Positions 17,164 to 42,873 of a stretch of DNA of 45,673 nt are shown piece after piece. The DNA comes from an uncultured Clostridia bacterium (GTDB taxonomy: Bacteria > Bacillota > Clostridia > Oscillospirales > Oscillospiraceae), in contig CAMVBX010000001.1 of assembly GCA_947165825.1 (NCBI GenBank), positions 1 to 45,673 on the forward strand. Direction: 5' to 3'. The number at the start of each line of letters is the position of its first letter. Position 1 is the stretch's first letter. The position numbers and the translations under genes were made by a program. A model generated the notes under the pieces. That model made no database searches. It was not told where the DNA came from and saw only the letters and a program-made list of their open reading frames with translations.

Positions 17164-17379
17164 ATGCCCACCTCCCGTTGAATCTGTTCGCATGCCGTAA
17201 GTATAGCACAGATGCGGAAAATCCGCATCCGGTTCTTTCCCGGCTGCGGGATGCGGAAAGGACTGCACCGGTATCCCCCGGACCTTGCGGCGAGCTGCAT
17301 TTTATGGTATCTTTGCAGACGGAAACCGGCTGCAGATCCGGGGAAGACCGGTACGGGAGAGGGGGGCTCGGCGTTGGCG

Positions 17380-18633
17380 ATGGATATCGGCGTTCTGGCT
17401 GCGCTGGCGCCGCTGCTGTTCCTGCTCCTGGGCCTGGGGTTCACGGTGGTGATCGACCCGTATATCCGGCGGGAGAACCGGCGGATCATGCTGGTCATCG
17501 TCCTGCTGTGCCTCACGCTGATCGCGCAGAATCTGGTGGAAAACAGCCTCGCCTCGGGACCCGCGCGGGTGACGGGAAGAACGCTGGTATCCGTTTACGG
17601 TTATATTGTGCGCCCGGTTTTCCTGATCCTGTTCCTGTATATCGTGCATCCGGAAGGGAAGCACTGGCTTTGGTGGGGGCTTGCGGCCGGGAATGCGGCT
17701 GTCTGCCTCACGGCGCTGTTTTCCGATATCTGCTTCATGATCGGCAGCGACAACCACTATCACCCCGGGCCTCTGGCGAACACGACCCTCTATATCAGCG
17801 CAGTTCTGTTGGCCAATCTTCTGGTTCAGACGCTGCGGAGCCGCCGGGAAGCCGGAAAGCAGGAAAAATGGATCCCGGTCTTCATCGCGGCCATGATCGT
17901 GCTCTCCGTCCTGATGGACAGCCGGGTACAGGCGGCGGCGGACCAGCCTGTCGCTTTCCTGACCATCGCCATCGTGGTGGGCAGCGTATTCTATTACCTC
18001 TGGCTCCATCTGCAGTTTGTCCGGGGGCATGAGCAGGACCTGAGGGCGGCTCAGCGCATCACGATCATGGCATCCCAGATCCGGCCGCATTTTCTCTACA
18101 ACACCATCGCCACGATCAGAGCCCTGTGCAGGCGCGATCCGGAAAAGGCGGAGAAGGTAGCGGAGGATTTCGGCCGGTACCTGCGGCAGAACATGGATTC
18201 TCTGGAGAGCGCAGGGCTGATCCCCTTTGAAAAAGAGCTGGAGCACACGCGCTGCTATGCCGATATTGAAATGGTGCGGTTCGAGAACATCCGCGTGGAG
18301 TACGATATCGGGGACCGGGTATTTACATTGCCCCCCCTGACAGTGCAGCCTATGGTGGAGAACGCGATTCGCCATGGCGTCCGGATCCGGAAGGAAGGCG
18401 TGGTCCGGGTGAGTTCCCGCTTCACGGACGGCTGCCATGAGATCCGGATACAGGATAACGGGATCGGATTTGACGTAAACGCCATAGAGGCAGCCGGGGG
18501 CCCCCATATCGGCATCCGCAACGTGCGGGAGCGGATCGAAACGCAGTGCGGCGGTTCGCTCCTCCTGGAAAGCCGGATGGGAGAAGGGACAACGGTCATC
18601 ATCCGGATCCCCGGGCGGAGGGAAAAAGCATGA
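17380..18633 (+). CDS. Sensor histidine kinase, LytS/YehU-type (His_kinase + HATPase_c) with polytopic N-terminal sensor
   Basis: About six N-terminal TM helices, the phospho-acceptor motif IRPHFLYNTIATI and the ATPase motif VQPMVENAIRHGV. The start is uncertain; the ATG at 17380 was chosen and its RBS is weak. Confidence 0.8.
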   Translation: MDIGVLAALAPLLFLLLGLGFTVVIDPYIRRENRRIMLVIVLLCLTLIAQNLVENSLASGPARVTGRTLVSVYGYIVRPVFLILFLYIVHPEGKHWLWWGLAAGNAAVCLTALFSDICFMIGSDNHYHPGPLANTTLYISAVLLANLLVQTLRSRREAGKQEKWIPVFIAAMIVLSVLMDSRVQAAADQPVAFLTIAIVVGSVFYYLWLHLQFVRGHEQDLRAAQRITIMASQIRPHFLYNTIATIRALCRRDPEKAEKVAEDFGRYLRQNMDSLESAGLIPFEKELEHTRCYADIEMVRFENIRVEYDIGDRVFTLPPLTVQPMVENAIRHGVRIRKEGVVRVSSRFTDGCHEIRIQDNGIGFDVNAIEAAGGPHIGIRNVRERIETQCGGSLLLESRMGEGTTVIIRIPGRREKA

Positions 18634-19442
18634 AAGTGATCTGCGTTGACGATGAGCGTCTCCTGATGGAGGACACCCTGGCCATGTGTCTCTCCCTGCC
18701 GGAGATCGACGAGGCGAAGGGATTTGTCTGGGCTCGGGACGCGCTGGAATGGACAGAACATAACCCGGTGGATCTGGCGCTTCTGGATATCGACATGCCG
18801 GATATGAACGGGATCATGCTGGCGGCGGAGATTAAGAACCGATCCCCCGGGACAGCGATTATTTTCCTCACCGGCTATGCCCAGTATGCGGTGGACGCGT
18901 TTGCCGTGCGGGCTTCCGGCTATTTGCTGAAGCCGGTCACCCGGGAGATGCTGGCCGCAGATGTGGCCTATGCGCTCTCCGGGAGGCGGAAGACGGCGGC
19001 GGTCCATGTGTTGGTCAGGACCTTCGGCCTGTTTGACGTATTTCTGGACGGGGCTCCGGTGAGATTCAAGATGGCGAAATGCAAGGAGCTTCTCGCCTAC
19101 CTGGTGGATCGGCAGGGAAGCAGCGTATCCCGGGCCGAGCTCTCCGCCGCCCTGTGGGAGGACCGCCCCTATGACCGGAAGCAGCAGAAGCAGCTGGATG
19201 TGTACATCCGCTCCCTGCGGGAAACGCTGGCGGATAACGGAATTGAGAACATTCTGGAGATGCAGAGGGGGACCCTGCGGATTATCCCGGAAACCTTTGA
19301 CTGTGACGCGTACCGTTTCTTTTCGGGGGACAGCGACGCGGTCAACGCCTATCGGGGGGAATACATGAGCGCCTATCCCTGGGCGAGCATCACGGAAGGC
19401 GCGATGTTCTGGCAGCAATGGGGGGAAGGCGGGAAGGATTGA
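18630..19442 (+). CDS. Response regulator: REC + SARP-type winged helix + truncated BTAD (COG3947-like)
   Basis: Its ATGA overlaps the kinase stop. REC motifs are LLDIDMPDMNG and YLLKP. The output domain LFDVFLDGAPVRF..AKCKELLAYLVDRQGSSVSRAELSAALWEDRP...LDVYIRSLRETL...LRIIPETFDCDAYRF matches the SARP/OmpR-family wHTH followed by the beginning of a BTAD. Confidence 0.85.
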   Translation: MKVICVDDERLLMEDTLAMCLSLPEIDEAKGFVWARDALEWTEHNPVDLALLDIDMPDMNGIMLAAEIKNRSPGTAIIFLTGYAQYAVDAFAVRASGYLLKPVTREMLAADVAYALSGRRKTAAVHVLVRTFGLFDVFLDGAPVRFKMAKCKELLAYLVDRQGSSVSRAELSAALWEDRPYDRKQQKQLDVYIRSLRETLADNGIENILEMQRGTLRIIPETFDCDAYRFFSGDSDAVNAYRGEYMSAYPWASITEGAMFWQQWGEGGKD

Positions 19443-19462
19443 CCCCACCGCCCCGGATGAAG

Positions 19463-19505
19463 AAGCCGTTTTTTTCCAAGAAACTGGAAGGAACGGCTTT
19501 TCTAT
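19463..19505 (+). terminator. Weak terminator candidate after the response regulator
   Basis: Stem aagccgtt / aacggctt around a long, partly paired loop, followed by a T-rich tctatt. Confidence 0.35.
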
Positions 19506-19536
19506 TGGACATTTATTGGACACGGACGGATAGACT
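19505..19536 (+). promoter_or_regulatory. Direct-repeat (TTGGACA-N4-TTGGACA) activator-type promoter, copy 1
   Basis: ttggaca ttta ttggaca cggacgga tagact. Two identical heptamers have 11-nt periodicity. The 3' heptamer lies 8 nt from a TAnnCT -10-like hexamer. The first 28 nt are identical to 40166-40193. Confidence 0.55.
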
Positions 19537-19555
19537 GTTTTCGGAAAGAGAATCG

Positions 19556-19782
19556 GACCCATGTCCCGTTCCGGGACATGGGCCAGACTGTAGACAAACC
19601 CGAAAATGGAACGAAAACGGGAAGGAAGATAGCGCGAAAGAAACCCAGGAGGGGTGTCTTTCGCGTTCAATCAGAAGTTTTTCGAACAATTTCTACCGTA
19701 TTTCCTGTTCGAAAAACTTGCTTCAGCGGGGCGACAAGACTTTGTCGACACGCTGACCCATGTCCCGTTCCGGGACATGGGC
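19556..19782. repeat. 227-bp hairpin-rich element bounded by ~43-nt imperfect inverted repeats (MITE/REP-cluster-like or structured 5' leader)
   Basis: The identical 28-nt gacccatgtcccgttccgggacatgggc occurs at 19556-19583 and 19755-19782. Each copy has an 11-bp stem and a 3-nt loop. The adjacent flanks cagactgtagacaaa (19584-19598) and actttgtcgacacgctga (19739-19756) are inverted relative to each other. Internal hairpins lie at 19633-19665 (9 bp) and 19678-19716 (11 bp). Confidence 0.6.
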
Positions 19783-19821
19783 AGCCGTCGGACGATCCGC
19801 CGCGGGAAAAGGAGTACGGCC

Positions 19822-20109
19822 ATGTCGGAACCTGGAAGCATATATGAACTGAGCGCCGATCAGCTGGAAGAGGTCAGCGGCGGAAGCCCGCAGCTCGGCA
19901 TCTACCGTCCCGGTTTCCGGTTCAGGGAAGAATCCCTGCGGTATTTTCGCCAGTGCGTCGGGGAGGAGACCTATGTCCGAGCCATGTCCAGCGAGGCGGG
20001 GCGGCGGCATCATTACGTCGTGGCCAGAGCGTTTCTGAGCCAGGCGGACTGGGAGAAATTCGTCTGGATCGAGCAGTTTGGCTCGCTGGACGGCTTTCCG
20101 GGCTGCTGA
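19822..20109 (+). CDS. Double-glycine-leader precursor protein (21-aa leader, 74-aa core)
   Basis: An AAGGAG RBS lies 7 nt before the ATG. The leader MSEPGSIYELSADQLEEVSGG fits the LSxxELxxIxGG consensus (L-12, L-7, V-4, GG). The core has two Cys, one of them the C-terminal residue. The gene lies immediately upstream of a C39-ABC exporter. Confidence 0.75.
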   Translation: MSEPGSIYELSADQLEEVSGGSPQLGIYRPGFRFREESLRYFRQCVGEETYVRAMSSEAGRRHHYVVARAFLSQADWEKFVWIEQFGSLDGFPGC

Positions 20110-20121
20110 GGAGAGAAAGAG

Positions 20122-20541
20122 ATGGAAGAACAGAAAACCATATTCCGAAAAAAAGCGCTGGAGCGGATCTCCTCTCCGGATCAGCTGACGGATTATCTCT
20201 GCGTGACGAACCCCGGGATCTGGGTGATCCTTGCCGCGATCCTTGCGCTCCTGGTCGGCCTCCTTGCCTGGGGGACCATCGGAACGCTGGAAACCAGCGC
20301 CAGGGTCAAGGTGATCATCGCGGATCATACGGCGGAGGTCGTTCCCCTGGGCAGCGAGCGCCTGGCGGAGGGAATGACGCTGTGTGTCGCGTCCCAGGAG
20401 ACCGTCATCGCCTCCACCGGCAGGGACGATTTCGGCAGGATCTTCGGCGTTGCGGAGCTCCCCCTGCCGGACGGCGTTTATGACGGGACCGTTGTGGTGG
20501 AACAAACGCGGCCCATCGACTTCCTGCTGGAAAGCCGGTAG
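20122..20541 (+). CDS. Short HlyD-like accessory protein of NHLM-type bacteriocin exporters
   Basis: The N-terminus FRKKALERISSPDQLTDYL followed by one TM helix resembles the start of NHLM-system HlyD proteins (TIGR03794, from memory). The protein is only 139 aa. Confidence 0.65.
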   Translation: MEEQKTIFRKKALERISSPDQLTDYLCVTNPGIWVILAAILALLVGLLAWGTIGTLETSARVKVIIADHTAEVVPLGSERLAEGMTLCVASQETVIASTGRDDFGRIFGVAELPLPDGVYDGTVVVEQTRPIDFLLESR

Positions 20542-20548
20542 TCCGTTT

Positions 20549-22726
20549 ATGAGCGGAATGAAGATCCGGTCGCCCCTCGCCAGGGGCGTTGCCAGGGTCC
20601 CCGTGATCCTGCAGCTGGAGGCGCTGGAGTGCGGCGCGGCGGCGCTGGCCATGGTCATGGCGTACTACGGCAAATGGGTGCCGCTGGAGCAGGTGCGCCT
20701 GGACTGCGGCGTCTCTCGGGACGGGAGCAAGGCTAAAAACATCTATCTGGCGGCGGAGCGCTACGGCTTTTCCGTTCAGGCCTTCCGCATGAGCCCGGAC
20801 GCCCTGCGGGAAAAGGGACGGTTCCCCTGCATCATCCACTGGAACATGAACCACTTTGTGGTGCTGGACGGGTTCCGGGGAAGGCACGTGTACCTGAACG
20901 ATCCTGCCAGGGGGGCGATCAGGGTGACCTGGGAGGAGTTCGACCGCTCCTTTACCGGCGTGACGATCATCCCCGTTCCCTCGGAACGCTTCGAGCCCAG
21001 CGGCAAGCGCCGCAGCACCGTGGAATTTGCCCGGAAGCGCCTGGCGGGCGCAGGGGCGGCGGTGGCCTTTGCGATGCTGACCACGGCGATCTCCTATCTC
21101 TTCGGCATTGCCAACTCCGTCACCTCCCGGATCTTCATGGACCGGCTGCTGACGGGGATCAATCCGGACTGGCTCTATCCCTTCATCGGTCTGATGGTCA
21201 TTCTGGCACTGATCCAGCTCATCGTGGCCTGGGCGCAGACGGTCTACTCCCTCCGGATCAACGGGAAGATGGCCGTCATCGGCAATACCACATATATGTG
21301 GAAGGTGCTTCGCCTGCCCATGGAATTCTTTTCCCAGCGGCTGGCGGGAGATATCCAGTCCCGGGCGGCCATGAACGCCGCCATCGCGGGAACGCTGGTG
21401 AACACCTTCGCTCCGCTCCTGCTGAATACCGGGATGATGATCTTCTACCTGGTGCTGATGCTGCGGCAGAGCCCGATGCTGACGCTGATCGGACTGGTGA
21501 CCCTGGTGCTGAACATCTTCATGTCCAGAGTGATCTCCAATCAGCGGATCAATACCACCCGGGTACAGATGCGCGACGCCGGAAAGCTGGAGGCGGCCAC
21601 AGTCAGCGGCATCGAAATGATCGAAACCATCAAGGCAAGCGGCGCGGAGAACGGCTTTTTCCAGAAATGGGCGGGCTATCAGGCCTCCGTCAATCTGCAG
21701 AGCGGAAAGATCGCGCTGACCGACTCCTTTCTGGGCATGATCCCGACCCTTCTCAGCACCCTGGCCGACTGCGCCGTTCTGGTGCTCGGCGTATGGATGA
21801 CCATGCAGGGCCGGTTCACCCTGGGCGCGGTGCTGATGTTCCAGGGGTTTCTGGGATCCTTCATGTCCCCGGCCATGACCCTGGTGAGCGCGGGTCAGAC
21901 GATCCAGGAGATGCGCACCCAGATGGAGCGGGTGGAGGACGTGATGGAATACCCCACGGACGAAAACGTCCTGGAGCGGGAGCCGGAAGCCCCGGAGCTG
22001 GCCAAGCTCAGGGGAAATGTGGAGCTCCGAAACGTAACCTTCGGTTATTCCCGGCTGGAGGCGCCCCTCATCCGGGACTTCTCCCTGAAGCTGAAAACCG
22101 GTGACCGGGTCGCCCTGGTCGGGGCGTCCGGCTGCGGAAAATCCACGATCTCCAAGCTGATCTCCGGCCTCTATCCGCCCTGGAGCGGGGAGATCCTTTT
22201 TGACGGCAAGCCCCGGAACGCCTATCCCCGGGAGGTCTTGTCGGGCTCGCTGGCCGTGGTGGATCAGGACATCATCCTTTTTGAGGATACCATAGCCAAC
22301 AACATCAAGATGTGGGACGACTCCATTCAGGATTTTGAGATGATTCTGGCCGCCCGGGACGCCCGGCTGCATGAGGACATCACGAAGCTTTCCGGGGGGT
22401 ATCAGCATCGGCTGACCAGCGGAGGCCGCGATCTCTCCGGCGGCCAGCGGCAGCGGCTGGAGATTGCCCGGGTCCTGGCCCAGGATCCCACCGTCATCAT
22501 TCTGGATGAAGCCACCTCCGCCCTGGATGCAAGAACGGAAAACGAGGTCGTTCAGGCCATTCGGGACCGGGGCATCACCTGCATCGTGATCGCCCACCGT
22601 CTCAGCACCGTGCGGGACTGCGACGAGATCATCGTCCTGGACAAGGGCCGGGCGGTGGAACGCGGCACCCATGATGAGCTGATGGCGCTGGGCGGCCTGT
22701 ATGCGGACCTGGTGGCGAACGAGTAA
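20549..22726 (+). CDS. Peptidase C39 domain-containing ABC transporter (PCAT; NHLM ABC1-like)
   Basis: C39 motifs are LQLEALECGAAALAMV (catalytic Cys) and HWNMNHFVVLDG (His). A 6-TM domain follows. The NBD carries Walker A GASGCGKST, the signature LSGGQRQR and Walker B IILDEATSALD. The start is ATG 20549 (alternative 20558). Confidence 0.9.
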   Translation: MSGMKIRSPLARGVARVPVILQLEALECGAAALAMVMAYYGKWVPLEQVRLDCGVSRDGSKAKNIYLAAERYGFSVQAFRMSPDALREKGRFPCIIHWNMNHFVVLDGFRGRHVYLNDPARGAIRVTWEEFDRSFTGVTIIPVPSERFEPSGKRRSTVEFARKRLAGAGAAVAFAMLTTAISYLFGIANSVTSRIFMDRLLTGINPDWLYPFIGLMVILALIQLIVAWAQTVYSLRINGKMAVIGNTTYMWKVLRLPMEFFSQRLAGDIQSRAAMNAAIAGTLVNTFAPLLLNTGMMIFYLVLMLRQSPMLTLIGLVTLVLNIFMSRVISNQRINTTRVQMRDAGKLEAATVSGIEMIETIKASGAENGFFQKWAGYQASVNLQSGKIALTDSFLGMIPTLLSTLADCAVLVLGVWMTMQGRFTLGAVLMFQGFLGSFMSPAMTLVSAGQTIQEMRTQMERVEDVMEYPTDENVLEREPEAPELAKLRGNVELRNVTFGYSRLEAPLIRDFSLKLKTGDRVALVGASGCGKSTISKLISGLYPPWSGEILFDGKPRNAYPREVLSGSLAVVDQDIILFEDTIANNIKMWDDSIQDFEMILAARDARLHEDITKLSGGYQHRLTSGGRDLSGGQRQRLEIARVLAQDPTVIILDEATSALDARTENEVVQAIRDRGITCIVIAHRLSTVRDCDEIIVLDKGRAVERGTHDELMALGGLYADLVANE

Positions 22727-22741
22727 GGCGGGGACGAGGAC

Positions 22742-24931
22742 ATGGGCTGGTTTGAGAACCAAATCGAAGAAAGACGCAGGGCCGACCAGCAGCTGCTGGA
22801 GGACTCCTTCCGCAAGATCGCCGGCGTGGTGCTGGGACAGCGCGCGGCGGAGAAGATCGGCGATGCCCGGATCGTCACGAAGGGCGCCATCGATGAGATC
22901 CTGAAGCACTATCATATCCAGCCGACGGAGCTTCCGGAGGACATCGCGGATACAGGCGACCAGCTGGATTATTGTCTGCGGCCCCATGGCATCATGCACC
23001 GCACCGTGGAGCTTGCGGAGGGCTGGTATCGGGACGCGTTCGGCCCCATCCTGGCCTTCACGAAGGAGGAAAGGATCCCCGTGGCGCTGCTGCCCGCCGC
23101 GATCCGCGGCTACAGCTTCACCGATCCCCGGACCGGGAAACGGGAAACCCTCAACAAGGTCACCGCCGCCCGCTTCGCCTCATCGGCGATCTGCTTTTAT
23201 CGGCCGCTGCCGCCCAAAAAGCTGGGGATCCCCGATCTCCTTCTGTACATGAAGCGCTGCGTGACCCTGAGCGATGTCGTCCTGATTGTTGCGGCAACGC
23301 TGGCGGTATCGGCAGTTGGACTGCTCATGCCCCGGATCACCAAGGCCCTGACCGGTCCGGTGCTCCTCAGCGGACGGAGCAGCGCCCTGATCGGCATCGC
23401 GGTGGCCATGGTCTGCATTTCCATCTCCTCCCGGCTCCTCAACAGCACGAAGGGGCTGGTCGGGAATCGCCTGGAGCTCAAGACCACACTGGGGGTGCAG
23501 GCGGCCATGATGATGCGGCTCCTGTCCCTTCCCGCGAGCTTTTTCCGGCAATACAGTCCGGGGGAGCTGAAAAGCCGCGCCATGTCGGTGAAGCAGCTCT
23601 GCTCCAGCATGCTGAGCATGGTCATGACGACCGGGCTGACATCTCTCACCTCCCTCCTGTATGTGGGACAGATCTTCCGTTATGCCCCGGCGCTGGTGAT
23701 CCCCTCCCTGATCACCATCCTTATCACGGTGGCGGTTTCTGCGGCTGCGACTTTAATGCAGATCGGGATCAGCCGGAAGCACATGGAGCATGCTGCCAAA
23801 GAATCCGGCATGAGTTACGCGCTGATCACCGGCGTACAGAAGATCAAGCTGGCCGGCGCGGAAAAGCGGGTCTTTGCCAAGTGGCTGGATGTATATGCCG
23901 AAGGCGCGGAGCTGGAGTATAACAGTCCGGCGTTTATCAAGCTGAACGGCGTGTTCTCCCTGGCGATCAGCCTTTTTTCCACCATCGTCCTGTACTATAC
24001 CGCGGTGAGCAGCGGCGTTGACCAATCCTCGTATTACGCCTTCACCGCATCCTATGGGATGCTCATGGGCGCGTTCCTGTCGTTGGCCGGAGTCGCCCTG
24101 TCCGCTGCCCGTATCCGGCCGATTCTGGAAATGGCTGAACCCTTCCTGCAGACCCCGCCGGAAACCGCGGAGGGCAAAAAGCCGGTGACAAGGCTCACCG
24201 GGAGCGTCGAGCTGGAGCATGTGTCGTTCCGGTATGGGAAGAATGAGCCGTATGTCCTGAACGATCTGTCGCTGAAGATCCGGGCGGGGGAGTATGTCGC
24301 CGTGGTAGGCAGGAGCGGCTGCGGCAAGTCCACCCTGGTCCGCCTGCTGCTGGGCTTCGAAAAGCCGGATACGGGAGCGATATTCTATGACGGCAGGGAT
24401 CTGGACAGCCTGGATCTGCCCTCCCTGCGCAGGAAGATCGGCACGGTCGCCCAGGACGCGGGACTGTTCCAGGGAGATATTTATTCCAATATCGTGATTT
24501 CCGCTCCGGAGCTTACGCTGGACCAGGCCTGGGAGGCTGCCGAAACGGCGGGCATTGCCGAGGAGATCCGGGCTATGCCCATGGGTATGCATACGCTCAT
24601 CTCCGAGGGGCAGAACGGGATTTCCGGCGGTCAGCGCCAGCGCATCATGATCGCCCGCGCCATAGCGCCGAAGCCGAAGCTGCTGATTTTCGACGAGGCG
24701 ACCAGCGCATTGGACAACCGGACCCAGCGCCGGGTCTCCGAAGCCCTGGATGCCATGGGCTGCACCCGCATCGTCATCGCCCATCGGCTGAGTACCATCC
24801 GGCACTGTGACAGGATCCTGGTGCTGGACGGGGGAAGGATCGTGGAGGACGGTACCTACGATCAGCTGATCGAACAGAACGGCTTTTTCGCCGAGCTGGT
24901 GGCGCGGCAGAGACTGGATACCGCTGGATAG
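22742..24931 (+). CDS. ABC transporter permease/ATPase without peptidase domain (NHLM ABC2-like)
   Basis: 729 aa. An N-terminal non-peptidase domain of about 160 aa is followed by a TMD. The NBD has GRSGCGKST, ISGGQRQR and LIFDEATSALD. Confidence 0.9.
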   Translation: MGWFENQIEERRRADQQLLEDSFRKIAGVVLGQRAAEKIGDARIVTKGAIDEILKHYHIQPTELPEDIADTGDQLDYCLRPHGIMHRTVELAEGWYRDAFGPILAFTKEERIPVALLPAAIRGYSFTDPRTGKRETLNKVTAARFASSAICFYRPLPPKKLGIPDLLLYMKRCVTLSDVVLIVAATLAVSAVGLLMPRITKALTGPVLLSGRSSALIGIAVAMVCISISSRLLNSTKGLVGNRLELKTTLGVQAAMMMRLLSLPASFFRQYSPGELKSRAMSVKQLCSSMLSMVMTTGLTSLTSLLYVGQIFRYAPALVIPSLITILITVAVSAAATLMQIGISRKHMEHAAKESGMSYALITGVQKIKLAGAEKRVFAKWLDVYAEGAELEYNSPAFIKLNGVFSLAISLFSTIVLYYTAVSSGVDQSSYYAFTASYGMLMGAFLSLAGVALSAARIRPILEMAEPFLQTPPETAEGKKPVTRLTGSVELEHVSFRYGKNEPYVLNDLSLKIRAGEYVAVVGRSGCGKSTLVRLLLGFEKPDTGAIFYDGRDLDSLDLPSLRRKIGTVAQDAGLFQGDIYSNIVISAPELTLDQAWEAAETAGIAEEIRAMPMGMHTLISEGQNGISGGQRQRIMIARAIAPKPKLLIFDEATSALDNRTQRRVSEALDAMGCTRIVIAHRLSTIRHCDRILVLDGGRIVEDGTYDQLIEQNGFFAELVARQRLDTAG

Positions 24932-24999: not shown

Positions 25000-25161
25000 G
25001 TGGAAAACGTGAAAAAGACAGATTTGCCGGAGAAGGATACGGAACAGGTCGCCCTGGAGCCTAACGAGCTGAGTCAGGTGGCGGGTGGGGGAGATCCCTT
25101 CGCCGATATCCCCAGGGTGCCGGAGAATCCCATTGACGATGAGCTCAGGAAAGACGGTTAA
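25000..25161 (+). CDS. Small GG-leader peptide A1 (53 aa; predicted 23-aa core GDPFADIPRVPENPIDDELRKDG)
   Basis: Not in the supplied ORF track. A GTG start lies 8 nt after the AGGAGG at 24986-24991, and there is an in-frame stop at 24985. The leader ...LEPNELSQVAGG fits the double-glycine consensus exactly. The peptide is a paralog of A2. Confidence 0.7.
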   Translation: MENVKKTDLPEKDTEQVALEPNELSQVAGGGDPFADIPRVPENPIDDELRKDG

Positions 25162-25174
25162 GGAGGAACGCACC

Positions 25175-25339
25175 ATGCTGGAACTGCGGAAGAACGGGAA
25201 AGGGACTGATCGGGAGCCGGAAAAGGTGGCGCTGGATCTCAACGATCTGGATCTGGTAACGGGATCCGGCGATCCCTTTGAAAATATCCCCCGGGTACCG
25301 GAAAAGGAGATCGATCCCGAGCTCCGGAACGATGCCTGA
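25175..25339 (+). CDS. Small GS-leader peptide A2 (54 aa; predicted 23-aa core GDPFENIPRVPEKEIDPELRNDA)
   Basis: An internal ATG of the listed 84-aa ORF lies 8 nt after an AAGGAGG that overlaps the A1 stop. The leader is ...LDLNDLDLVTGS. The core is 16/23 identical to A1. Confidence 0.75.
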   Translation: MLELRKNGKGTDREPEKVALDLNDLDLVTGSGDPFENIPRVPEKEIDPELRNDA

Positions 25340-26708
25340 ACGGCGGGAGCTGACCGGGCGGACCGGGATCTGCGTTCTTGCGGCGATCCTGCTCCTGGCG
25401 CTTCTCTCCATCTCTTCCCCCGCTCCGGCTGCAGCCGCCGGGGAGACGGCGTATATCGTGAAGATCAAGGCGTCCGATGCCCCGTTCACCGTTGTCGGGG
25501 AAGGGGAGATGCGGCGTCTGGACCGGGCCGGGCTCCTGGAATGGGCGGAGCCCGATGGGGAAGCTCAGCTGCTGGGCACCCTGTCCCCCTACTATGCGGA
25601 TGAACAGTGGAACCTGGATATGATCGGCGCGGAGGCTGCCTTCCGGCAAAACTGTCTTGGGCAGGGGATCCGGGTGGGCGTCCTGGATTCCGGCGTGAAT
25701 CCCCATCCGGACTTCGGGGACCGTCTGCTGCCGGGACATAACTACGTCCAGGACGCCGAGGATCCGGAGGACACCTCGGATTCCTACGGCCATGGCACCC
25801 GCATCGCGGGCCTCGTCGCCGCTGCCGGCGAAGCGGGATATATCGGCACCGCCCCCGGAGCGGAGATCGTACCCATCAAGGTAACGGATGGAAAATCCGT
25901 CAAGGTCAGCGTCATTTGCGAGGCGATCTACGGGGCGATCGACGACTTCGGCTGCCGCGTTCTGAACTTGAGCATGGGCGTGCGGACAGACTATCAGTCC
26001 CTGCGGGATGCCGTGGCCTATGCGGAAGCCAGGGGCGTCGTGGTGGTTTCCGCGGCGGGCAACAGCGGCACCTCCGCCATGTACTACCCCGCCGGGTACG
26101 AAACGGTCATCGGCATCGGAGCGGTGGACTGCAACAGCGTGCTGTATTACCACTCCGATCACAATGAAAGCGTTTTTCTGACCGCCCCGGGGGTGGATGT
26201 GCGCAGCACGGCCTCCCGCGGCGGCTATACCGCCTCTACAGGCACCAGCTTCGCGGTGCCCCAGGTATCCGGCGCGGCGGCGGTGCTGCTGGGGATGGAC
26301 GGCGGTCTGAGCCCGGAGGAGATCCGGAGGATTCTGGCAGAAACCGCCAGTGATGCCGGAGACGAGGGCTATGACGAGTATTTCGGCTACGGGATCCTGA
26401 ACCTGGCGGGCTGCGTCTCCCGCCTGACGGAAGGGGAAGAACTGCCCGGGGAACCGTGCAGTTTCCTCCCGGAAACAGGTCCCGCCGCAGCGGTCCGCAG
26501 CAACGTGAACGAAGAAATCGATTGCACCTATCTGCTGGCCGAATATGACACGGACGGCGTCTGCCTGAGCGTGCAGACATGGCGTTTTACTCTCCCGGCC
26601 GGAGGAATTGCGGAGCTCACCCTTCCCGAGGAAAACGCGAACTACGGACAGTTTCTCTATGATTCGAAAACCCTGTGCCCCCTGGCCGAGGCGCGCAAAT
26701 CGCACTGA
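25332..26708 (+). CDS. Secreted subtilisin-like serine protease (peptidase S8)
   Basis: Its ATG overlaps the end of A2 (an 8-nt overlap). It has a signal peptide or anchor, ICVLAAILLLALLSISSPAPAAAA. The catalytic motifs are VGVLDSG (Asp), SYGHGTRIAG (His) and GTSFAVPQVSG (Ser). Confidence 0.9.
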   Translation: MPERRELTGRTGICVLAAILLLALLSISSPAPAAAAGETAYIVKIKASDAPFTVVGEGEMRRLDRAGLLEWAEPDGEAQLLGTLSPYYADEQWNLDMIGAEAAFRQNCLGQGIRVGVLDSGVNPHPDFGDRLLPGHNYVQDAEDPEDTSDSYGHGTRIAGLVAAAGEAGYIGTAPGAEIVPIKVTDGKSVKVSVICEAIYGAIDDFGCRVLNLSMGVRTDYQSLRDAVAYAEARGVVVVSAAGNSGTSAMYYPAGYETVIGIGAVDCNSVLYYHSDHNESVFLTAPGVDVRSTASRGGYTASTGTSFAVPQVSGAAAVLLGMDGGLSPEEIRRILAETASDAGDEGYDEYFGYGILNLAGCVSRLTEGEELPGEPCSFLPETGPAAAVRSNVNEEIDCTYLLAEYDTDGVCLSVQTWRFTLPAGGIAELTLPEENANYGQFLYDSKTLCPLAEARKSH

Positions 26709-26740
26709 ACACAATGCTTCACGAAATTGAGGGATCTGCC

Positions 26741-29700
26741 ATGAGAAAACCATTTGTCCGAATCCTTGCGGCGCTTCTCATCGTCTTGATGCTGTTCCAG
26801 CTTTCCGGGGAGAGCATCGCCTATGCGGCGGACACGCTGGACAAGGCGCTCAACCCGGAGAAACAGATCGAACTCATCGTGCCGCAGTCGCTGCAGGATG
26901 GGGAAAACTACTTCTTCATCCGGGAGGATACCTTCACCATCAGTGAGAAGAGCAGCGAAAAGCTGTATATCCCCATCCAGCGGACCGGAGACATAGATGC
27001 GGCGACGGACGTGACGCTCAAGGTCATCGACATGTCCGCCCACTTCGGCGTGAACTATGAAGCCAGGATCTGTGACGAAAAGACGGCTCCCGTGACGATC
27101 CTGAACGGCATCGCCGTGATCGATCTGTTCCTGTATGCCGATGAGCAGATCGAAGCCGAACCGATCGACGAGGATGAACTGGGCACCATATTGACCGAGA
27201 ATGGCGGAAGCGGGGATATCCTGGCGCCGGACGGTGAGGTCGTGGGCTCGATTTCCGCTGTCCCTCTGGATGAAAACGGCAATCCGATCCCACCCGAAAC
27301 GGGCGGGACAGCATCGGCTGCGCCTGCGGCGGAGCCTGGCGATGAGGGAGAATCCGTCCCCAATGCGTCGGCGGAGGCTGAGGCGGAGGAAACTGCGCTT
27401 GCGGAGGACGGAGAACCGGAGGAGGAACCCCTGTCTCCCCCCCGGAGCCTGATGGCCGCCCGCAATGCCTTCACCGGGACCCAATCCGACCGACAGCAGC
27501 TGGCAGGCGGCGATACCTTCGGCGCTCTGTCTCCCGCTCAGCGTCTGGAAGCGGCGCAGGAGGGGCAGCAGCGCACCGACGCGGAGATCGCGGCGGAAAA
27601 CTACCCCGGTCGGGAATACGCCCTGCATTTCGAAGCCGGGGAGATCGTCAAATTCCTGGAGATCACCCCCAAGTATTCCGAGGCTGCCGATGGGGACAGC
27701 ACCATCATCCTCATGCTGAAGGACTTGCCGGATAACGCCGTCGTCCCGGAGGACTTCAATATGCGCTCCGTCGTCATCACCGACGAGGATGAGCATGAGG
27801 AGGTCGTCATCAGCCTGACCCAGGAGACGATCCGCGCCGAGGACGGGAAGGCGGTCATCACGGTCACCCGTACCGGCCGCATCAACGATCTGGTGGGCGT
27901 CATGCTCTCCTCCCAGGATGGCAGCGCCGTTGCCGGGGACGATTACGGCGGCGTGGGGGCCAAACTCTGGTTCTCCATGGGGATCACCTCCCGTACGGTG
28001 GAATTGCCGGTGGGCCACGGGGCTGAGGAGAAAGACTTCACCGTGACCATCGCGCCTCTGCCCACCATGCCTGACGTGAAGATCGGATTGGCCAGCGCCC
28101 GCGTTATCATCCCTGCCGGGGAGAAGGCGGATGACGGCGAGCTGATGGCCAGCACGGACCTGTACGGCGACATGTGGAACCTGCGGGACAGGACCCGGAA
28201 GATCACCGGCAAGGTGAATTATGACAGCGATACGACCGTCAGCTACAGGACCAGCCTCGATAAGTGCGAGACACAGTACATCTCCCTCTACACGGACAGA
28301 GACTATGCCTGGGACGGCATCCACGTAGTATACGACTACCACACCTGGTATTCCAAGGGCAAAGTTGATGTGGAATTGAATAACGGCGACGGCAACTGGG
28401 TCCGTGTTTTCCGTAAAGACTGGGGCGACCTGGACGAGAAGTGGAAGCGAGAGCAGATTGCCGACGCCTATTTCGGCCAGTTAGAGGGACCCTGGATCAT
28501 CAGCATCGATAACTATACCTATGAGGTTCATAACGGCTTCCGGGACAGCCATTCCGACATCGTCGTAACAAGCGTGCAGCCCATCAAGCGGCAGTTCACC
28601 ATCAAGATGCTGGCGCCCGAGGCCCTCTCCTTCGAGGGAATGACGGAGGCGGAGGTGCTGGCCCGGTATGAGCAGGTCATGCTGGACTCCGGCCTGGATA
28701 CCTCCGTGACCCTGTATACCGGGGACAATTTCTCCATCTCCCGTCTCAGCAGCCCGGAGATGGCCCGGCTCGTGGGGATCGAGGCGGTCCGGTCCGACGG
28801 CATGACGTACCGGATCGCAAACATCACCGGCAGTAACGGCACCGCCACGGTGGAGCTGAATCCGCGCCTCATCAACTTGCTGGCCGGTTACGGCTACATC
28901 GAATGGAAGGAGAGCAAAGGCTCCTACTCCGGCACCATCCAGGTCCGGCCGGTATTCGACTACGTGAAGAGCGTCACCGTCCAGGTCCGGGATTCCGCCT
29001 ACGGGACCCTCTGCCTGGAGGACGAGCCCCCTCTCCGCTGGGAATTCGATTCTGACCAGATGATCAACGTCTGTATGGGCGCCAACTCCCGCCACAACGT
29101 CGACTGGCAGGGAGAAACGGATAATGCGGGCAACGATTACTATACCTTCACCGCCACGGGAGACGACCCTTACGTCTCCATCGACATGCCTTACGCGAAC
29201 GCCTCCAAGCTGGTCTGGGTCAAGGTCCGGGCCAGGAACCTCTGCGGGGCGGACGCCATTGAGCTCTTCGGCAAGTTCAACGATACGGGTCCCGAAGGCA
29301 CAAGCTGCGTCCATATCGATCTGGAGCAGGACAAGGAATGGCACACCTACCTGGTGAACATCCCGGAGTCGAATATCCAGACCGTCAACGCCTATAAAGG
29401 AGCCACCATCAGCACGACCACCTGGAAGGGGAAGGCCAACTGGCTCCGGCTGGATCCCGTGTGGAATGAAAACTCCTCCGCGCGCTCCGGCGATCAGATC
29501 CAGATCGACTACGTGGCTTTCTTCTCCGACAAGGAGAAGGCGGAATCCTATCATAACGGCACCGCCGCGGGCACTACCCTCACCGCCGGCAGGCATACCT
29601 TCCATTACGGCGATAAGCTGGTCTTCCTCCCCAACCTGGATCCCGCCTGGGCGGGCCGGATGCGGGCCCTGGGCATTTCCAGCGAGAGCCGCAGGAACGG

Positions 29701-32700
29701 ACCTGCCGGGACGCTGACCGGGAAGAACGACGGGTATTACGTGGGTGAGGATGGGGCCGATCAATGGTCCGTCACCCTGGATCAGGATTACTATGAATTC
29801 TGGCAGTTCTACACGGATGTGGACAACCTGGTGCAGGTCCAGATCCCCGTATCCGACGCGGAGTATTTCGATACCGAAAAGGGCCTCTTCGCAGGGCTTG
29901 CCCCCACAGTCAGCGGGAACTATCAGATCTGGACGGTGCGGGAGAGCGTCCTGACCAACGAACTGGTGGACCTGATCGCTCTGCCGAAGGACAGCAGCCA
30001 TGTGCCGGTCTGGACTCTTGCCGGAAACGGAAATACGTATTCCGGCAGCGAATTCTTCTTCTTCGCCGGGGTACAGGCCTCGGACAATCTGGTTACCCTC
30101 CGGATGGACCGGACGGCGTCCGATCACGCCTGGTACTCCCTCCGGGGCACCGCCTGCTACTCCACCCTGAATCTGGAGAGCGGGAATGAGGCGGACGATC
30201 TCTATCCCGCAGAGTTTGCCCGGATCACTTCCGCCCTGTCCGGCACCGAGTCGGGCCGGGACGGCGATTTTACCCTGGAGCCCATGTACTTGCTGGGCGG
30301 CAGCATCGTGCGCTACATCGTGCATTTTAACGGCACCTCCATGATCCGGGAGGTCAAGGTGGCCCCGGCGAATGCCGCCACCGAAACGGTGAATTACCTG
30401 GATGCCGCGGGCGGCTATTCGCAGATCCGGGCCATCCCTGTGGATCTGGGGAACGTGAAGGTGGAGGGGTGGTCCCGTACAGGCGCGCATTTTTCCAATG
30501 TCAGCGTGACCCTGGCCAACTTCAACCCCGAAGTCATCACCGCCATGGAGATGAACGGCAAGACCCTCACCGTGAAAATCACGGTGGATCCGGGGCAGCC
30601 GTACATCTGGGAGGGCGCGCAATGCAGAGAGACCGTCACAGAGGTGACCCTCTGGTTCCAGAGCCAGCTCACCGGAGAGATCCACGGGATCTACTCCACC
30701 ACCCTGCAGGAGGGAGAGACGAGCCCCGGCCTCACCTGGAACCAGATGACGAATACCGCCACCCTGACCATCCGGAGATTCTCACCGGACGCGCCGGAAA
30801 AGTACACCTACGGCGATGTGATGATGCTCCAGCTCACCACCGATAAGAAAACCTCTGCAGGCGGGAGCGGCCTGATGGTCTATCAGCCCGTGTCCAGCGG
30901 CTATACCGTCATCACCGACCAGAACTATGTACCGGAAACCTATGAAGAGGATGTGGACATGTCCAGCATGCTGGATGCGGCCCTCTCCGAAGAAAACAAG
31001 ACCCGTTACAGCTTTGGTCAGTTCCCCTGGCTGGGAAACATCACCGGGGTCTTTGCCACCTTTTCCTATTTTGTCAGCTCCGGATTCAACAATACCGCGC
31101 AGATGATCCTGGACGATCTGCAGCTCATGGAGGATGGGGACGCGGAGCTCATGGCCGGCGTTCTCCCGCGCAAGGCGGCCATCAGTGCGGCAGTGGCCTT
31201 CAAGGAACTCCCCTACGGCGGCGTCCGCACCATGATTGCCGTGGCCGTATCCTTCGGCAATGCCGCCTATTCCAGACGGGCCAATCCCTATCAAGCGAGG
31301 GAAGTCGCGTCTACCTTCCTGAGCGGCATTACCAGCGGCAGCAGCGGAGACCTGCTCTATGGAGGCGGCCAATTCAACGGCGGCGAATCCCTGGTCCAAA
31401 GCGAGCTGGGCGGATCATACATCTACTTCACCATCTATGTGGGCCTCTATCTCGACTGGGGCTTCATTGAGAAAGCCGTGACCGACAGCGACGGTGAGAC
31501 GGAACAGAGCCACTTCGCCCTCTTCCTGGGCGCCGGGGGCTTCTACGGCATCAGCATGACCGGCGGCTATACGAAATACGTTTTCCCCTGGGGCGTTCCG
31601 GTGTATTTCAATATTGAGGCGAATATCGACCTGACGGTATTCCTGGGGTCTTCTGCGGATCCCCAAAAGACGCTGGAATCCTTCTACGAGACTTCAGACC
31701 ACAAGGGACAGGACTTCGCCTTCAATATGGAGATTTATGCAGATGCCGGGCTGAAGCTTACCATCGGTGTCGGCCTCTACAAGATCATAGGCGTCCGGGC
31801 ATCCGGCGGTGTCGGGGTCCAGGCCGGCCTGAGCCTGCGCATGGCGGACTGGTTCCCGGATCTGGAAGGGGCCGATACCCTCAGCGTCTCCACCGATGCC
31901 ACGTTCTCCGGTTCCGTTGACCTGATCGTGACCAGTATCGATCTCTGGAGCGCCTCCTGGCCGCTGCCCCTGGGCTATGGCTGGCTGCAGTATTTCCAGC
32001 AGATGCGCCGGGCGAATATCCTGATCCATTTTATCAACGAGGAGATCAACGAGCACAGAGGTTCTCAGGCAGCCAGAGACGAATGTCGCCGGCTGGCCGA
32101 CGAGCTGGGCGCCTATGTGGACGCCTATCAGGGTACCGGCAAGGCGCTGAAAAAGCTGGTGGACCACCTCAACGACTATGCCTATGATCATGGCATCATC
32201 CGGCCGGAGCACTGGGCCCGGGTCAATATGATTCGGCAGGGCGGCTTGCTGGGCAACATGGCGGAAAGCTACTATGCCTGGATGATGGAGGACGACGGGC
32301 AAAGCAGCCTCTTCCATACCCGGGACCATGTGGATACCCGCTGGGTGGCGGGGGAGGACGCCTCTCTTATGGCGGCCTTCGGCCCGGTGAGCACCGCAAA
32401 GCTTGTGGAGAATGCGGTCTCCCAGCCCGCGGCGCAGATCGCGGCCCTGGGGAACAACCGCTTCCTTGCGGTCTTCCTGGACGACGACGCAAGCCGGGAC
32501 CGCCAGCAGGCCGGCGTACTGAAATGGGCGGTTTACGATGCAAACACAAACGCATGGACGGCCCCGCAGACCGTACAGGATGACGGGACCGCGGACGGGC
32601 GTCCCAACCTCATCGACGGCGGGGACAAGCTGATCCTCTCCTGGTCCTCCATCCCGCAGGAAAAGTACGCCGCGATGAAGCTGGAGGTCGCCAGGGAGCT

Positions 32701-40165: not shown

Positions 40166-40205
40166 TTGGACATTTATTGGACACGGACGGATATTCTGCT
40201 ATACT
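40166..40205 (+). promoter_or_regulatory. Direct-repeat (TTGGACA-N4-TTGGACA) promoter, copy 2
   Basis: The 28 nt at 40166-40193 are identical to 19505-19532. The 3' heptamer lies 8 nt from tattct (40192-40197). Read as a sigma-70 promoter instead, TTGGAC (40177-40182), a 17-nt spacer and TATACT (40200-40205) also fit. It lies about 100 nt upstream of the STAS gene. Confidence 0.6.
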
Positions 40206-40304: not shown

Positions 40305-40601
40305 ATGACCATCAACAAAACCGGAAGCGGAAGCAAGCTGACCCTGGCCTTGGCGGGCCGTCTGGATACCGTTACCGCGCCAGAGCTGGAAAAGGAACTG
40401 CAGGATTCCCTGGAGGGGATCGATACGCTCATTTTCGATTTCTCCGGTCTGGAGTACGTCTCCTCCGCCGGGCTGCGTGTGCTGCTTTCGGCGCAGAAGA
40501 CCATGAACAAGCAGGGAGAAATGAAGCTTACTCATGTGAACGAAAGCATCATGGAAATTTTTGAGGTCACCGGCTTTACGGATATCCTGACCTTCGAATA
40601 A
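40305..40601 (+). CDS. STAS domain anti-sigma-factor antagonist (SpoIIAA/RsbV-like)
   Basis: 98 aa after an AAGGAGG RBS. The conserved phospho-Ser context FSGLEYVSSAGLRVLL is present, and the C-terminal MEIFEVTGF segment is typical of the family. Confidence 0.9.
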   Translation: MTINKTGSGSKLTLALAGRLDTVTAPELEKELQDSLEGIDTLIFDFSGLEYVSSAGLRVLLSAQKTMNKQGEMKLTHVNESIMEIFEVTGFTDILTFE

Positions 40602-40620
40602 GCGGAGGGAGAAGAGCGGA

Positions 40621-41238
40621 ATGAAGACAGCAAGGATCAAAGTCACGACCCGGGGCGAAGGAATGGAAGAAGCCCTGGCGGCAACGGAGAAACTGGGGAC
40701 CGACAGCGGTCTCGCGCACAAGGAGCAGCTGCGGCTCCGCCTGTTGGCGGAGGAGCTGATCGGCCTGATGCGGGGCATTGCGGGCAGCGTGGAGGCCTGC
40801 TATCAGGCGGAGCAGGAGGAGCGGAGATTCCGCCTTTGCCTCAGCGCCGATGTTACGCTGGACAAGGAGATGCGCAAGCAGCTGCTGGCCGCCTCCTCCA
40901 GCGGGAAAAACGCGGCGGCCCGGGGATTCATGGGAAAACTCCGGGAAATGGTGGCCATCGTTGTGCTTCCAAAGAGCCAGAGTTCGCCCGGGGTGTCCAA
41001 TCTCTCTCTGGGTCTGATCAGCATGGGCAGCCCCAGAGGGTATGTTTCCGGCGCGGATACCTATAACTGGTCCATGAGCACCTATATGTCCGAGGTCAAA
41101 AGCAAGCGGGGAGAGAACGCGGAAGCCGACGAGGCCTGGGACGAACTGGAAAAGTCCATTGTGGCCAACCTGGCGGATGAGGTCACCGTACAGATCGTGG
41201 GGCACAACGCGGAGATCACCATTACCAAGGCTTTCTAA
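40621..41238 (+). CDS. Hypothetical protein (205 aa) inside the partner-switching module
   Basis: GGAGGGAG RBS and codon usage like its neighbours. No family recognised. Confidence 0.6.
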   Translation: MKTARIKVTTRGEGMEEALAATEKLGTDSGLAHKEQLRLRLLAEELIGLMRGIAGSVEACYQAEQEERRFRLCLSADVTLDKEMRKQLLAASSSGKNAAARGFMGKLREMVAIVVLPKSQSSPGVSNLSLGLISMGSPRGYVSGADTYNWSMSTYMSEVKSKRGENAEADEAWDELEKSIVANLADEVTVQIVGHNAEITITKAF

Positions 41239-41304
41239 GGCACAGTACGGCATAGACGAAGGAAACGGCGCTGCCACGAATATGGGAAGAGGAGACGGAA
41301 GGGT

Positions 41305-42873
41305 ATGGAAAAAAAGCGGATTACGATCCCGCTCTCCGGGCGGATCGACTCCAATAACGCAGCAGCGGTGGAACAGGAGATCCTGGCGAAGCTGGGGGCG
41401 GAGCGGGATATCGCCCTGATCCTGGACGCGGAGAAGCTGGAGTATATTTCCAGCGCGGGCTTGCGGGTGATCCTGCACCTGAAAAAGATGATCCCGGAGC
41501 TGAGCATCCGAAACGTCAGCTCCGAGGTTTATGAGATCCTGGAGATGACCGGGTTCACCGAGATGATGACGGTGGAAAAGGCCTACCGGGTCGTCTCGGT
41601 GGAGGGCTGCGAGGAGATCGGGCGCGGCGCAAACGGCACGATCTACCGGATCGACCGGGATAATGTGGTCAAGGTTTACAACAATGCCGACGCTCTGGCG
41701 GATATCCAGCATGAGCGGGAGGTGGCAAAGCTTGCCCTGATCCTGGGCATCCCCACGGCCATTTCTTACGACGTGGTCCGGGTGGGGGAGAGCTATGGCT
41801 CTGTTTTCGAGCTGCTGAACGCCAGGTCCTTCTCCAAGATCATCGCAACGGAGCCGGAGAAGCTGGACTGGTGCGTGGAGGAATACGTAAAGCTGCTGAA
41901 GACGATCCACGGCACGCTGGTTCCGGCGGGCAAGCTGCCGGATATGCGGGAAACGGCCCTGGACTGGGCCCGGTTTATGCAGGACTATCTGCCCCGGGAG
42001 GCCGGAGCGAAGCTGCTGGCCCTGGTGGAGGCGGTGCCCAGGGACGATCATATGCTCCACGGGGACTATCATACGAAGAATCTGGAGCTGCAGAATGACG
42101 AGGTCCTGCTCATCGATATGGACACCCTGGCGGTGGGCCATCCCATCTTTGAACTGGCGAGCATCTACAACTCCTTCGTCGGGTATTCCGAGCTGAAGCC
42201 GGAAACGATCCTGGCGTTCCAGGGCTTCGACCAGGAAACCGGCCGGACCTTCTGGCACAAGGCGCTTTCCGCCTATCTGGGCACGAACTGCCCCGCGAAG
42301 CTGCGGGAGGTGGAGGACAAAGCCCGCATCATCGGGTATACCCGCATGATCCGCCGCTCCATCCGGCGCAAGGGATTGGAGACGGAGCAGGGCAGAGCGG
42401 AGATCGAGCTGTGGAAGCGGGAGCTTCTGGAGCTGCTGGAACGGACGGACAAGCTGACTTTCTCCCGCAATGAGCTGGAGCTTGAAGCCGTCGACGAGAA
42501 CCTGGCGCAGGTGCAGACCTTCGTGGATGAGCGTCTGGAGGCGGCGGACTGTCCGCCGAAGGCGCAGATGCAGATCGGCGTGGCGGTGGAGGAGATCTTC
42601 GTGAATATCGCCCACTATGCCTATGCGCCGGATAAGGGCAGCGCCGCGGTGCGCGTGGAAGTCAGCGATGATCCCGTTACGGTGTCCATCACCTTCATCG
42701 ACCAGGGTATGCCCTATGATCCCTTGGCCAGGACCGATCCGGATATATCGCTCCCGGTCAGCGAGCGGGACGTCGGCGGGCTGGGGGTCTTCCTGACCAA
42801 ACAGCTCATGGACGACGTGACCTATTCCTATCGGGACGGACGGAATATCCTGACCCTGAAAAAGAAGCTGTGA
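41305..42873 (+). CDS. Triple-fusion regulator: STAS - APH/choline-kinase-like kinase - GHKL anti-sigma kinase (SpoIIAB-like)
   Basis: N-terminal STAS with EKLEYISSAGLRVILHL. The central kinase fold has GRGANGTIYRI, VVKVY, LHGDYHTKNL and LLIDMD. The C-terminal HATPase has AVEEIFVNIAHYAY, IDQGMPYDP and VGGLGVFLTKQLMD. Confidence 0.85.
   Translation: MEKKRITIPLSGRIDSNNAAAVEQEILAKLGAERDIALILDAEKLEYISSAGLRVILHLKKMIPELSIRNVSSEVYEILEMTGFTEMMTVEKAYRVVSVEGCEEIGRGANGTIYRIDRDNVVKVYNNADALADIQHEREVAKLALILGIPTAISYDVVRVGESYGSVFELLNARSFSKIIATEPEKLDWCVEEYVKLLKTIHGTLVPAGKLPDMRETALDWARFMQDYLPREAGAKLLALVEAVPRDDHMLHGDYHTKNLELQNDEVLLIDMDTLAVGHPIFELASIYNSFVGYSELKPETILAFQGFDQETGRTFWHKALSAYLGTNCPAKLREVEDKARIIGYTRMIRRSIRRKGLETEQGRAEIELWKRELLELLERTDKLTFSRNELELEAVDENLAQVQTFVDERLEAADCPPKAQMQIGVAVEEIFVNIAHYAYAPDKGSAAVRVEVSDDPVTVSITFIDQGMPYDPLARTDPDISLPVSERDVGGLGVFLTKQLMDDVTYSYRDGRNILTLKKKL

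Follow-up and report, generated by a model that had tools for sequence, protein, structure and literature searches.

What is the function of two identical heptamers that stand in tandem between the gene of a response regulator and a set of peptide and exporter genes? Such a pair occurs in the window, by which we mean the whole stretch of 45,673 nucleotides analysed here, and an earlier note had read it as TTGGACA-TTTA-TTGGACA, 8 nt and TAGACT at 19505-19536, in an arrangement like that of promoters served by SARP activators. That reading of the letters proved exact, and the site (site 1) is made up of the following parts:

19505-19511, + strand: upstream heptamer TTGGACA, read directly
19512-19515, + strand: inter-heptamer spacer TTTA, read directly
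19516-19522, + strand: downstream heptamer TTGGACA, at 11 nt from the first, with 8 nt between it and the -10 hexamer
19523-19530, + strand: 8-nt spacer cggacgga, read directly
19531-19536, + strand: -10 hexamer TAGACT, corresponding to TAnnnT at +8 in related sites

In this register the start of transcription would fall near 19543 and the upstream heptamer would cover about -38 to -32. No canonical sigma-70-type promoter (TTGACA, 16-18 nt, TATAAT) was called in 19380-19900. Judged by its conservation in sequence, the unit formed by the two repeats and the -10 hexamer can be regarded as a genuine promoter box that is shared by Clostridia of the gut and rumen, and most likely the adjacent, uncharacterised regulator uses it to turn on two operons, one for peptide export and one for signalling. 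The box lies 3′ of the regulator terminator and 5′ of the peptide and exporter genes, as had been claimed, within this order of features:

17212..18633, + strand: sensor histidine kinase of the LytS/YehU type (Pfam His_kinase PF06580 7.7e-20, HATPase_c 7.4e-12)
18630..19442, + strand: response regulator of 270 aa (Pfam REC 5e-21, Trans_reg_C 4.8e-10)
19461..19501, + strand: terminator-like hairpin of the regulator gene (RNA fold -20.9 kcal/mol, z -3.7)
19556..19782, + strand: structured leader segment between two identical 28-nt palindromes (repeat search, RNA fold z -5.5)
19822..20109, + strand: 95-aa protein with a double-glycine-type leader (…LSADQLEEVSGG), the first gene downstream of site 1
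20122..24931, + strand: exporter genes (Pfam Peptidase_C39, ABC_membrane, ABC_tran)
within 20122..24931, + strand: 139-aa protein resembling the HlyD N-terminus (NCBIfam NHLM_micro_HlyD 8.5e-8, below the family cut-off)
about 20546-22726, + strand: C39-peptidase ABC transporter (Pfam)
22742-24931, + strand: second ABC transporter (Pfam)

The true start of the kinase is probably near 17380 (MDIGVLAAL...), and its homologues are paired with regulator homologues in many loci. The U-rich tail of the hairpin, UUUUCUAUU, extends into the 5′ flank of the box, and since this is a real hairpin with such a tail, the label of weak terminator that it had received was correct; equivalent, stronger hairpins are present in the related loci L001, L004 and L006. 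The palindrome that bounds the leader segment is GACCCATGTCCCGTTCCGGGACATGGGC. About 195 nt of the leader are missing from L001, the closest relative, none of the fetched loci contains the palindrome, and the long leader had no match in Rfam; the segment may be an inserted element or may exert leader-RNA control. The 95-aa protein, whose leader reads …EEVSGG, matches no Pfam family. It has a conserved core of about 70 aa (…CVGEETYxRAMSxEAGRRHHYVxARxFLxQxDWEKFVWIEQxGSLDGFP), and homologues occur in L002, L004, L016, L024, L046, L072 and L075, the same loci that hold the regulator and STAS genes, where they lie 5′ or 3′ of STAS within the same operons. The double-glycine leader is found in many members of this family and is absent in others. 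Exporter genes also follow the box in L001, L006 and L075.

The exact double heptamer is present in two copies in the 45-kb window, and the second, which the earlier note does not mention, precedes genes of another kind:

40166..40183, + strand: site 2, second exact TTGGACA-TTTA-TTGGACA (pattern scan, repeat family D11)
40192..40197, + strand: -10-like hexamer TATTCT of site 2, at the family-conserved +8 position
40200..40205, + strand: TATACT, the hexamer of an overlapping sigma-70-like promoter
40305..42873, + strand: operon downstream of site 2 (Pfam)
40305-40601, + strand: STAS protein (Pfam)
40621-41238, + strand: 205-aa protein with no assigned family (Pfam search)
41305-42873, + strand: STAS-APH-HATPase_c_2 protein (Pfam)

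Both boxes are intergenic and oriented toward the downstream genes, and they share an identical block of 28 nt, TTGGACATTTATTGGACACGGACGGATA (40166-40193 for the site 2 copy), within 31 identical positions out of 33; an identity of 28 nt within 45 kb is far beyond chance. The 11-nt repeats and the 8-nt distance are present at both sites, and transcription from site 2 would start near 40204. Less complete versions of the pattern are not enriched in the window: single TTGGACA heptamers number 7 for 3.9 expected, and double heptamers with up to 3 mismatches number 3 for 2.2 expected. The only match that the loose pattern added, at 19974-19991 on the coding strand, was treated as due to chance. 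In relatives the STAS operon lies directly downstream of the regulator and box, whereas in the window it is 20 kb away. A gene for a 3,115-aa surface protein with SLH-like repeats at its C-terminus occupies 26675-36022, and further proteins with the same repeats are encoded at 36095-37240; this block, between the exporter genes and site 2, parts the regulator from its usual STAS neighbour.

When genome contigs were scanned for the exact 18-mer, with one genome per species and 185,579 species, we obtained 98 stretches with 100 unique sites. TAnnnT occurs at +8 in 62 of these sites and in at most 10 at any other offset. None of the sites combines the 8-nt spacer and the -10 hexamer found in the window. 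The 62 sites belong to Clostridia-type assemblies (Oscillospiraceae, Ruminococcus, Lachnospiraceae and 'Clostridia bacterium'), several genomes having many of them, with at least 9 in RUG328 and divergent pairs included. The 8-nt spacer often contains the TG of an extended -10, and the 5′ flank reads TTnTA. The box is always oriented toward genes, with start codons mostly 25-100 nt downstream of the predicted transcription start, and the products of the first genes include STAS proteins, HAMP-SpoIIE-HATPase_c_2 proteins, a GAF-ABC ATPase, a dCache chemoreceptor-like protein, an MscS-like channel, a YkuD-like lipoprotein, SH3 and other secreted proteins and a double-glycine peptide with a LysM-like sequence. 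A tblastn search with the window proteins placed homologues of the regulator, kinase, STAS, leader, 205-aa or ABC proteins beside the box in about 40 loci. The box stands upstream of the kinase-regulator operon in L020, L064 and L085; none was found upstream of the window's own kinase gene. The autoregulatory placement is seen only in some relatives. Proteobacterial matches to the 18-mer TTGGACATTTATTGGACA were excluded, being a tRNA-adjacent element with no -10 at +8. In these Alpha- and Gammaproteobacteria (L029, L034, L045, L047, L060, L065, L079, L089, L095 and L102), a tRNA gene has its 3′ end about 30-45 nt from TTGGACATTTATTGGACA, which resembles a conserved repeat of the island-end or integrase-side kind and has no relation to the clostridial box.

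The reverse approach, in which loci were chosen through the regulator, led to the same box. Loci were fetched via identical homologous proteins, without use of the motif, and in these the box is found 45-140 nt downstream of the regulator gene, as the following four examples show:

L001, regulator of 91% identity: spacer cggactgc and hexamer TAGGCT, then leader protein and exporter
L002, regulator of 79% identity: spacer tggcccga and hexamer TAAACT, then STAS
L004, regulator of 74% identity: spacer gactctgt and hexamer TAAATT, then leader-protein homologue, STAS, unknown protein, SpoIIE and STAS-APH-HATPase_c_2
L006, regulator of 67% identity: spacer tacgctgg and hexamer TAAAAT, then HlyD-like protein and two ABC transporters

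We extended the comparison to 80 metagenome loci (452 kb) selected by regulator homology only, at 43-75% identity, and scanned them for TTGGACA-N4-TTGGACA with at most 2 mismatches and a fixed start-to-start distance of 11 nt. The box is carried by 49 of the 80, with 61 hits against 1.9 in composition-preserving shuffles (about 30-fold), and TAnnnT falls exactly at +8 in 52 of the 58 unique hits for 0.05 expected. Its position is 3′ of the regulator gene, immediately 5′ of it, or 5′ of the kinase gene. The SARP-style architecture proposed at the outset is thus kept in 62/100 unique box-anchored and 52/58 unique regulator-anchored sites. No box was found within reach in L008/L009, in L010 and in 31 of the 80 metagenome loci, where many contigs are short.

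Down to a regulator identity of 43%, the heptamer, the 8-nt distance and the 11-nt period are constant, the last in scans that fixed the repeat distance in advance, while the 8-nt spacer differs freely from site to site, as do the outer flanks. The 4-nt spacer between the heptamers follows the clade of the regulator: the window's clade has TTTA, and other clades have TTTG, TCTG, TCCT or TTCT. In 21 of 52 sites the 4 nt that precede the first heptamer are the same as this spacer, which indicates that the repeated and recognised unit is probably 11 nt long. Conservation over the whole family and a usual target in the STAS partner-switching operon are, together with the second site, what the analysis adds to the earlier note.

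The regulator begins with a REC domain, continues with a winged helix of the SARP type and ends in a truncated BTA domain of about 55 aa. Its D53 is an invariant REC aspartate in our alignment (A1) and the presumed phospho-acceptor. The REC domain resembles those of LytR, BtsR and MrkE, which fits a kinase of the LytS type. A fold search with the full-length protein was dominated by ordinary OmpR/PhoB regulators and did not type the effector half. A model of the effector only (residues 125-270, pLDDT 92.5), searched with Foldseek, resolved the question. The matches to AfsR (8hvr, 8k60) and EmbR (2ff4, 2fez) reached E values of 2e-6 to 2e-5 over about 163 columns with a TM score (query) of 0.71-0.76, in contrast to PhoB, ArlR, SaeR and others at 1e-3 or worse, with a TM score of about 0.49 over 84 columns. 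This closer match to AfsR and EmbR than to PhoB-type folds indicates a winged helix of the SARP type, as had been supposed for this protein. However, a sequence profile of the effector domain scored better against an OmpR-type protein of the PDB (ArlR, 5e-5) than against EmbR (0.2), so it is the predicted structure that supports the SARP assignment. Beyond the wing, approximately 55 residues form three helices that correspond to the first helices of the BTA domain, the model covers 0.44 of the AfsR SARP chain, and no Pfam BTAD hit was obtained in the regulator at E<=0.01. A complete BTA/BTAD domain like that of the SARP family is thus not present, and the modelled effector is best described as SARP-like, fused to a receiver and truncated in its BTA part. 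More than 2,400 homologues of the regulator were found at E<=1e-10, mostly in metagenome bins of Oscillospiraceae and other Clostridia, some of them labelled 'two-component SAPR family response regulator' by JGI. Two homologues of 428 aa (P0006, P0008) have a single REC domain and, behind it, a tandem of two SARP-like effector modules, as would be expected if two modules occupy two adjacent repeats. A tandem-module homologue of this length is encoded at 2673-3959 of L010, a 6-kb contig on which no box was found.

How could such a protein act on the box? At SARP promoters direct repeats recur every 11 or 22 bp and 8 bp separate the 3′ repeat from the -10, and AfsR binds as a side-by-side dimer over the -35 region, where it contacts sigma region 4 and the polymerase core (PMC10936776). 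The geometry of the clostridial box is that of the SARP rule, from which we infer tandem binding by a dimer of the phosphorylated regulator, with recruitment of the housekeeping polymerase. It is quite probable, on this sequence evidence, that the box is an activator-dependent promoter core bound in tandem by two protomers of the adjacent regulator. The two effector domains would bind head-to-tail, each taking one 11-nt unit made of a 4-nt T-rich flank and TTGGACA. The upstream protomer would occupy the usual place of the -35 and the downstream one would lie on the spacer, at a distance of 8 nt from the -10. The bound dimer would replace -35 recognition, as in the transcription complexes of the SARP AfsR, and would recruit the housekeeping RNA polymerase to a weak -10, TAGACT at site 1 and TATTCT at site 2. 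Binding would be triggered when the LytS-type kinase phosphorylates the receiver domain, presumably at D53. In the window the predicted regulon would have two arms, site 1 driving the double-glycine-leader protein and C39-ABC exporter operon, and site 2, 20 kb away, driving the partner-switching operon of STAS, unknown and STAS-APH-HATPase_c_2 proteins. Since the BTA domain is largely missing, the mode of activation may differ from that of AfsR. In AfsR the BTA domain contributes to the dimer interface and to RNA polymerase contacts.

Activation in preference to repression is itself part of what is inferred, and the regulator could instead bind the box as a repressor or autoregulatory operator that blocks RNA polymerase. 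The box does overlap the core promoter, and boxes are also found upstream of kinase-regulator operons. Moreover, at site 2 (40178-40205) the 3′ heptamer can itself serve as the -35 of a sigma-70-like promoter (TGGACA, 16 nt, TG and TATACT, with 10 of 12 matches). This promoter may give basal expression or complicate the effect of the regulator, and given the -35-like heptamer for TATACT, binding at site 2 could repress or modulate instead. As a general account of the box, repression is nonetheless improbable: site 1 and most related sites have no usable -35, so there would be no promoter to repress without the factor, and the fixed 8-nt register to the -10 is a signature of class II-type activation in SARPs.

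A promoter for an alternative sigma factor could also be read from the box, with the upstream TTGGACA as -35 and TAnnnT as -10, and such a factor might be controlled by the STAS, anti-sigma-like kinase and SpoIIE proteins often encoded downstream. Partner-switching modules classically control sigma factors (SigB, SigF), and this reading deserves attention for the abundance of partner-switching proteins in the regulon, many of the box-driven genes encoding STAS, HAMP-SpoIIE-HATPase_c_2 and STAS-APH-HATPase_c_2 proteins. A sigma factor needs only one -35, whereas both heptamers and the full 11-nt unit are conserved. A distance of 19-20 nt would have to separate -35 from -10, the -10 resembles that of housekeeping promoters and is often extended by TG, no sigma gene is present in the gene lists obtained for the loci, and linkage of the box is tightest to the regulator gene. 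All this makes an alternative sigma factor distinctly improbable.

It is very improbable that another protein of the locus, such as the 205-aa protein or an HTH-REC protein, binds the box and that the regulator is a mere passenger. No family is assigned to the 205-aa protein, which accompanies the operon, but OmpR/SARP winged helices have tandem direct repeats with a period of 11 nt as their standard target, no DNA-binding protein other than the regulator is consistently adjacent, and boxes adjoin regulator genes in loci (L001, L006 and L020) where the 205-aa protein is absent. That the box is a chance or structural feature with no regulatory role, a terminator tail or a mobile repeat, is hardly credible: it does abut the terminator T-run, and single heptamers are not enriched in the window, but the excess of about 30-fold over shuffles, the constant orientation toward genes and the conservation across regulators of 43-99% identity despite diverging flanks all speak against it, and the strict TAnnnT register at +8 (62/100 and 52/58 unique sites) contradicts it.

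The preferred reading, a promoter core activated by a tandem dimer of the regulator, relates the box to several known systems. Like the promoters of the Streptomyces SARPs (the afs box of AfsR and the targets of ActII-ORF4, DnrI and RedD), it has direct repeats of 11-bp period, each with 7 conserved nucleotides and about 4 others, a 3′ repeat 8 bp from the -10, an upstream repeat over the -35 position and a poor or absent -35, and the fold of the clostridial effector domain is closest to AfsR and EmbR. The repeat, however, is TTGGACA in place of the TCGAGNN-like repeats of Streptomyces, and the hosts are Clostridia and not Actinobacteria. The protein here is a two-component regulator with an N-terminal REC domain and about three BTA helices, and its targets are signalling and export genes, whereas those of the Streptomyces SARPs lie in antibiotic clusters. 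With PhoB and OmpR the regulator shares a REC domain joined to a winged helix, a Pfam Trans_reg_C hit and, as predicted here, a mode of binding in which protomers line up head-to-tail on direct repeats of 11 bp that have an A/T-rich linker and take the place of the -35 (PMC1906773). It differs from them by a LytR/BtsR-like REC domain, a SARP-like C-terminal extension of the effector and a LytS-type kinase (PF06580) where those systems have EnvZ/PhoR types. The pho box stands 10 bp from the -10 (PMC1906773), in contrast to the 8 nt found here, so that the register is not that of a pho box. The architecture is the known one of SARP and OmpR promoters; what is new is the protein variant, the lineage and the regulon.

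The literature searched, which was incomplete, contained no description of the box or of a binding site for this regulator family, in agreement with the earlier view that such sites are essentially undescribed, and TTGGACA appeared in it in primers only. A paper on C. difficile CD1688 does not, to judge by its text, deal with this regulator family. The box offers a precise and testable DNA target for a family of two-component regulators, very large and unstudied, in Clostridia of the gut and rumen. It is predicted to extend the SARP promoter rule, so far a feature of actinobacterial antibiotic regulation, to a receiver-fused and BTA-truncated Firmicutes version. It can be used now for regulon prediction in MAGs, where the predicted regulon includes partner-switching proteins, exporters, chemoreceptor-like proteins, MscS-like channels and secreted proteins, and it could underlie reporters or inducible promoters in anaerobes that are hard to study.

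The gene order also recalls ComCDE/ComAB, BlpRH and AgrCA, in which a kinase-regulator pair lies beside a gene with a double-glycine leader and a C39-peptidase ABC exporter. The position of the box upstream of some kinase-regulator operons suggests positive feedback, as in the peptide-pheromone circuits of Firmicutes. The Com, Blp and Agr regulators have LytTR domains that recognise 9-bp repeats about 21 bp apart, and their kinases are of another class. The effector here is Trans_reg_C/SARP-like and not LytTR, and the exported product would have a conserved 70-aa core, with some members leaderless, where the Com, Blp and Agr systems have a short and variable peptide. It is possible, though we find it doubtful as a whole, that the locus is an autoinducing circuit for cell-cell signalling in gut and rumen Clostridia. 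The C39-ABC pair would then cleave and export the 95-aa protein, the LytS-type kinase would sense the product, and the phosphorylated mini-SARP regulator would fire every TTGGACA box and so amplify export. It would also switch a partner-switching network of STAS, SpoIIE and anti-sigma-like kinase proteins that might control surface, secretion and second-messenger genes, and the lineage-specific 4-nt spacers could insulate paralogous circuits within one genome.

Directly 3′ of the second ABC transporter gene, at 25000-25339, we also observed two small tandem ORFs with leaders of the GG/GS type and the common core GDPF(A/E)(D/N)IPRVPE…ELR(K/N)D. They lie before or overlap the gene of an S8 subtilase (25278-26708) and may encode further exported peptides.
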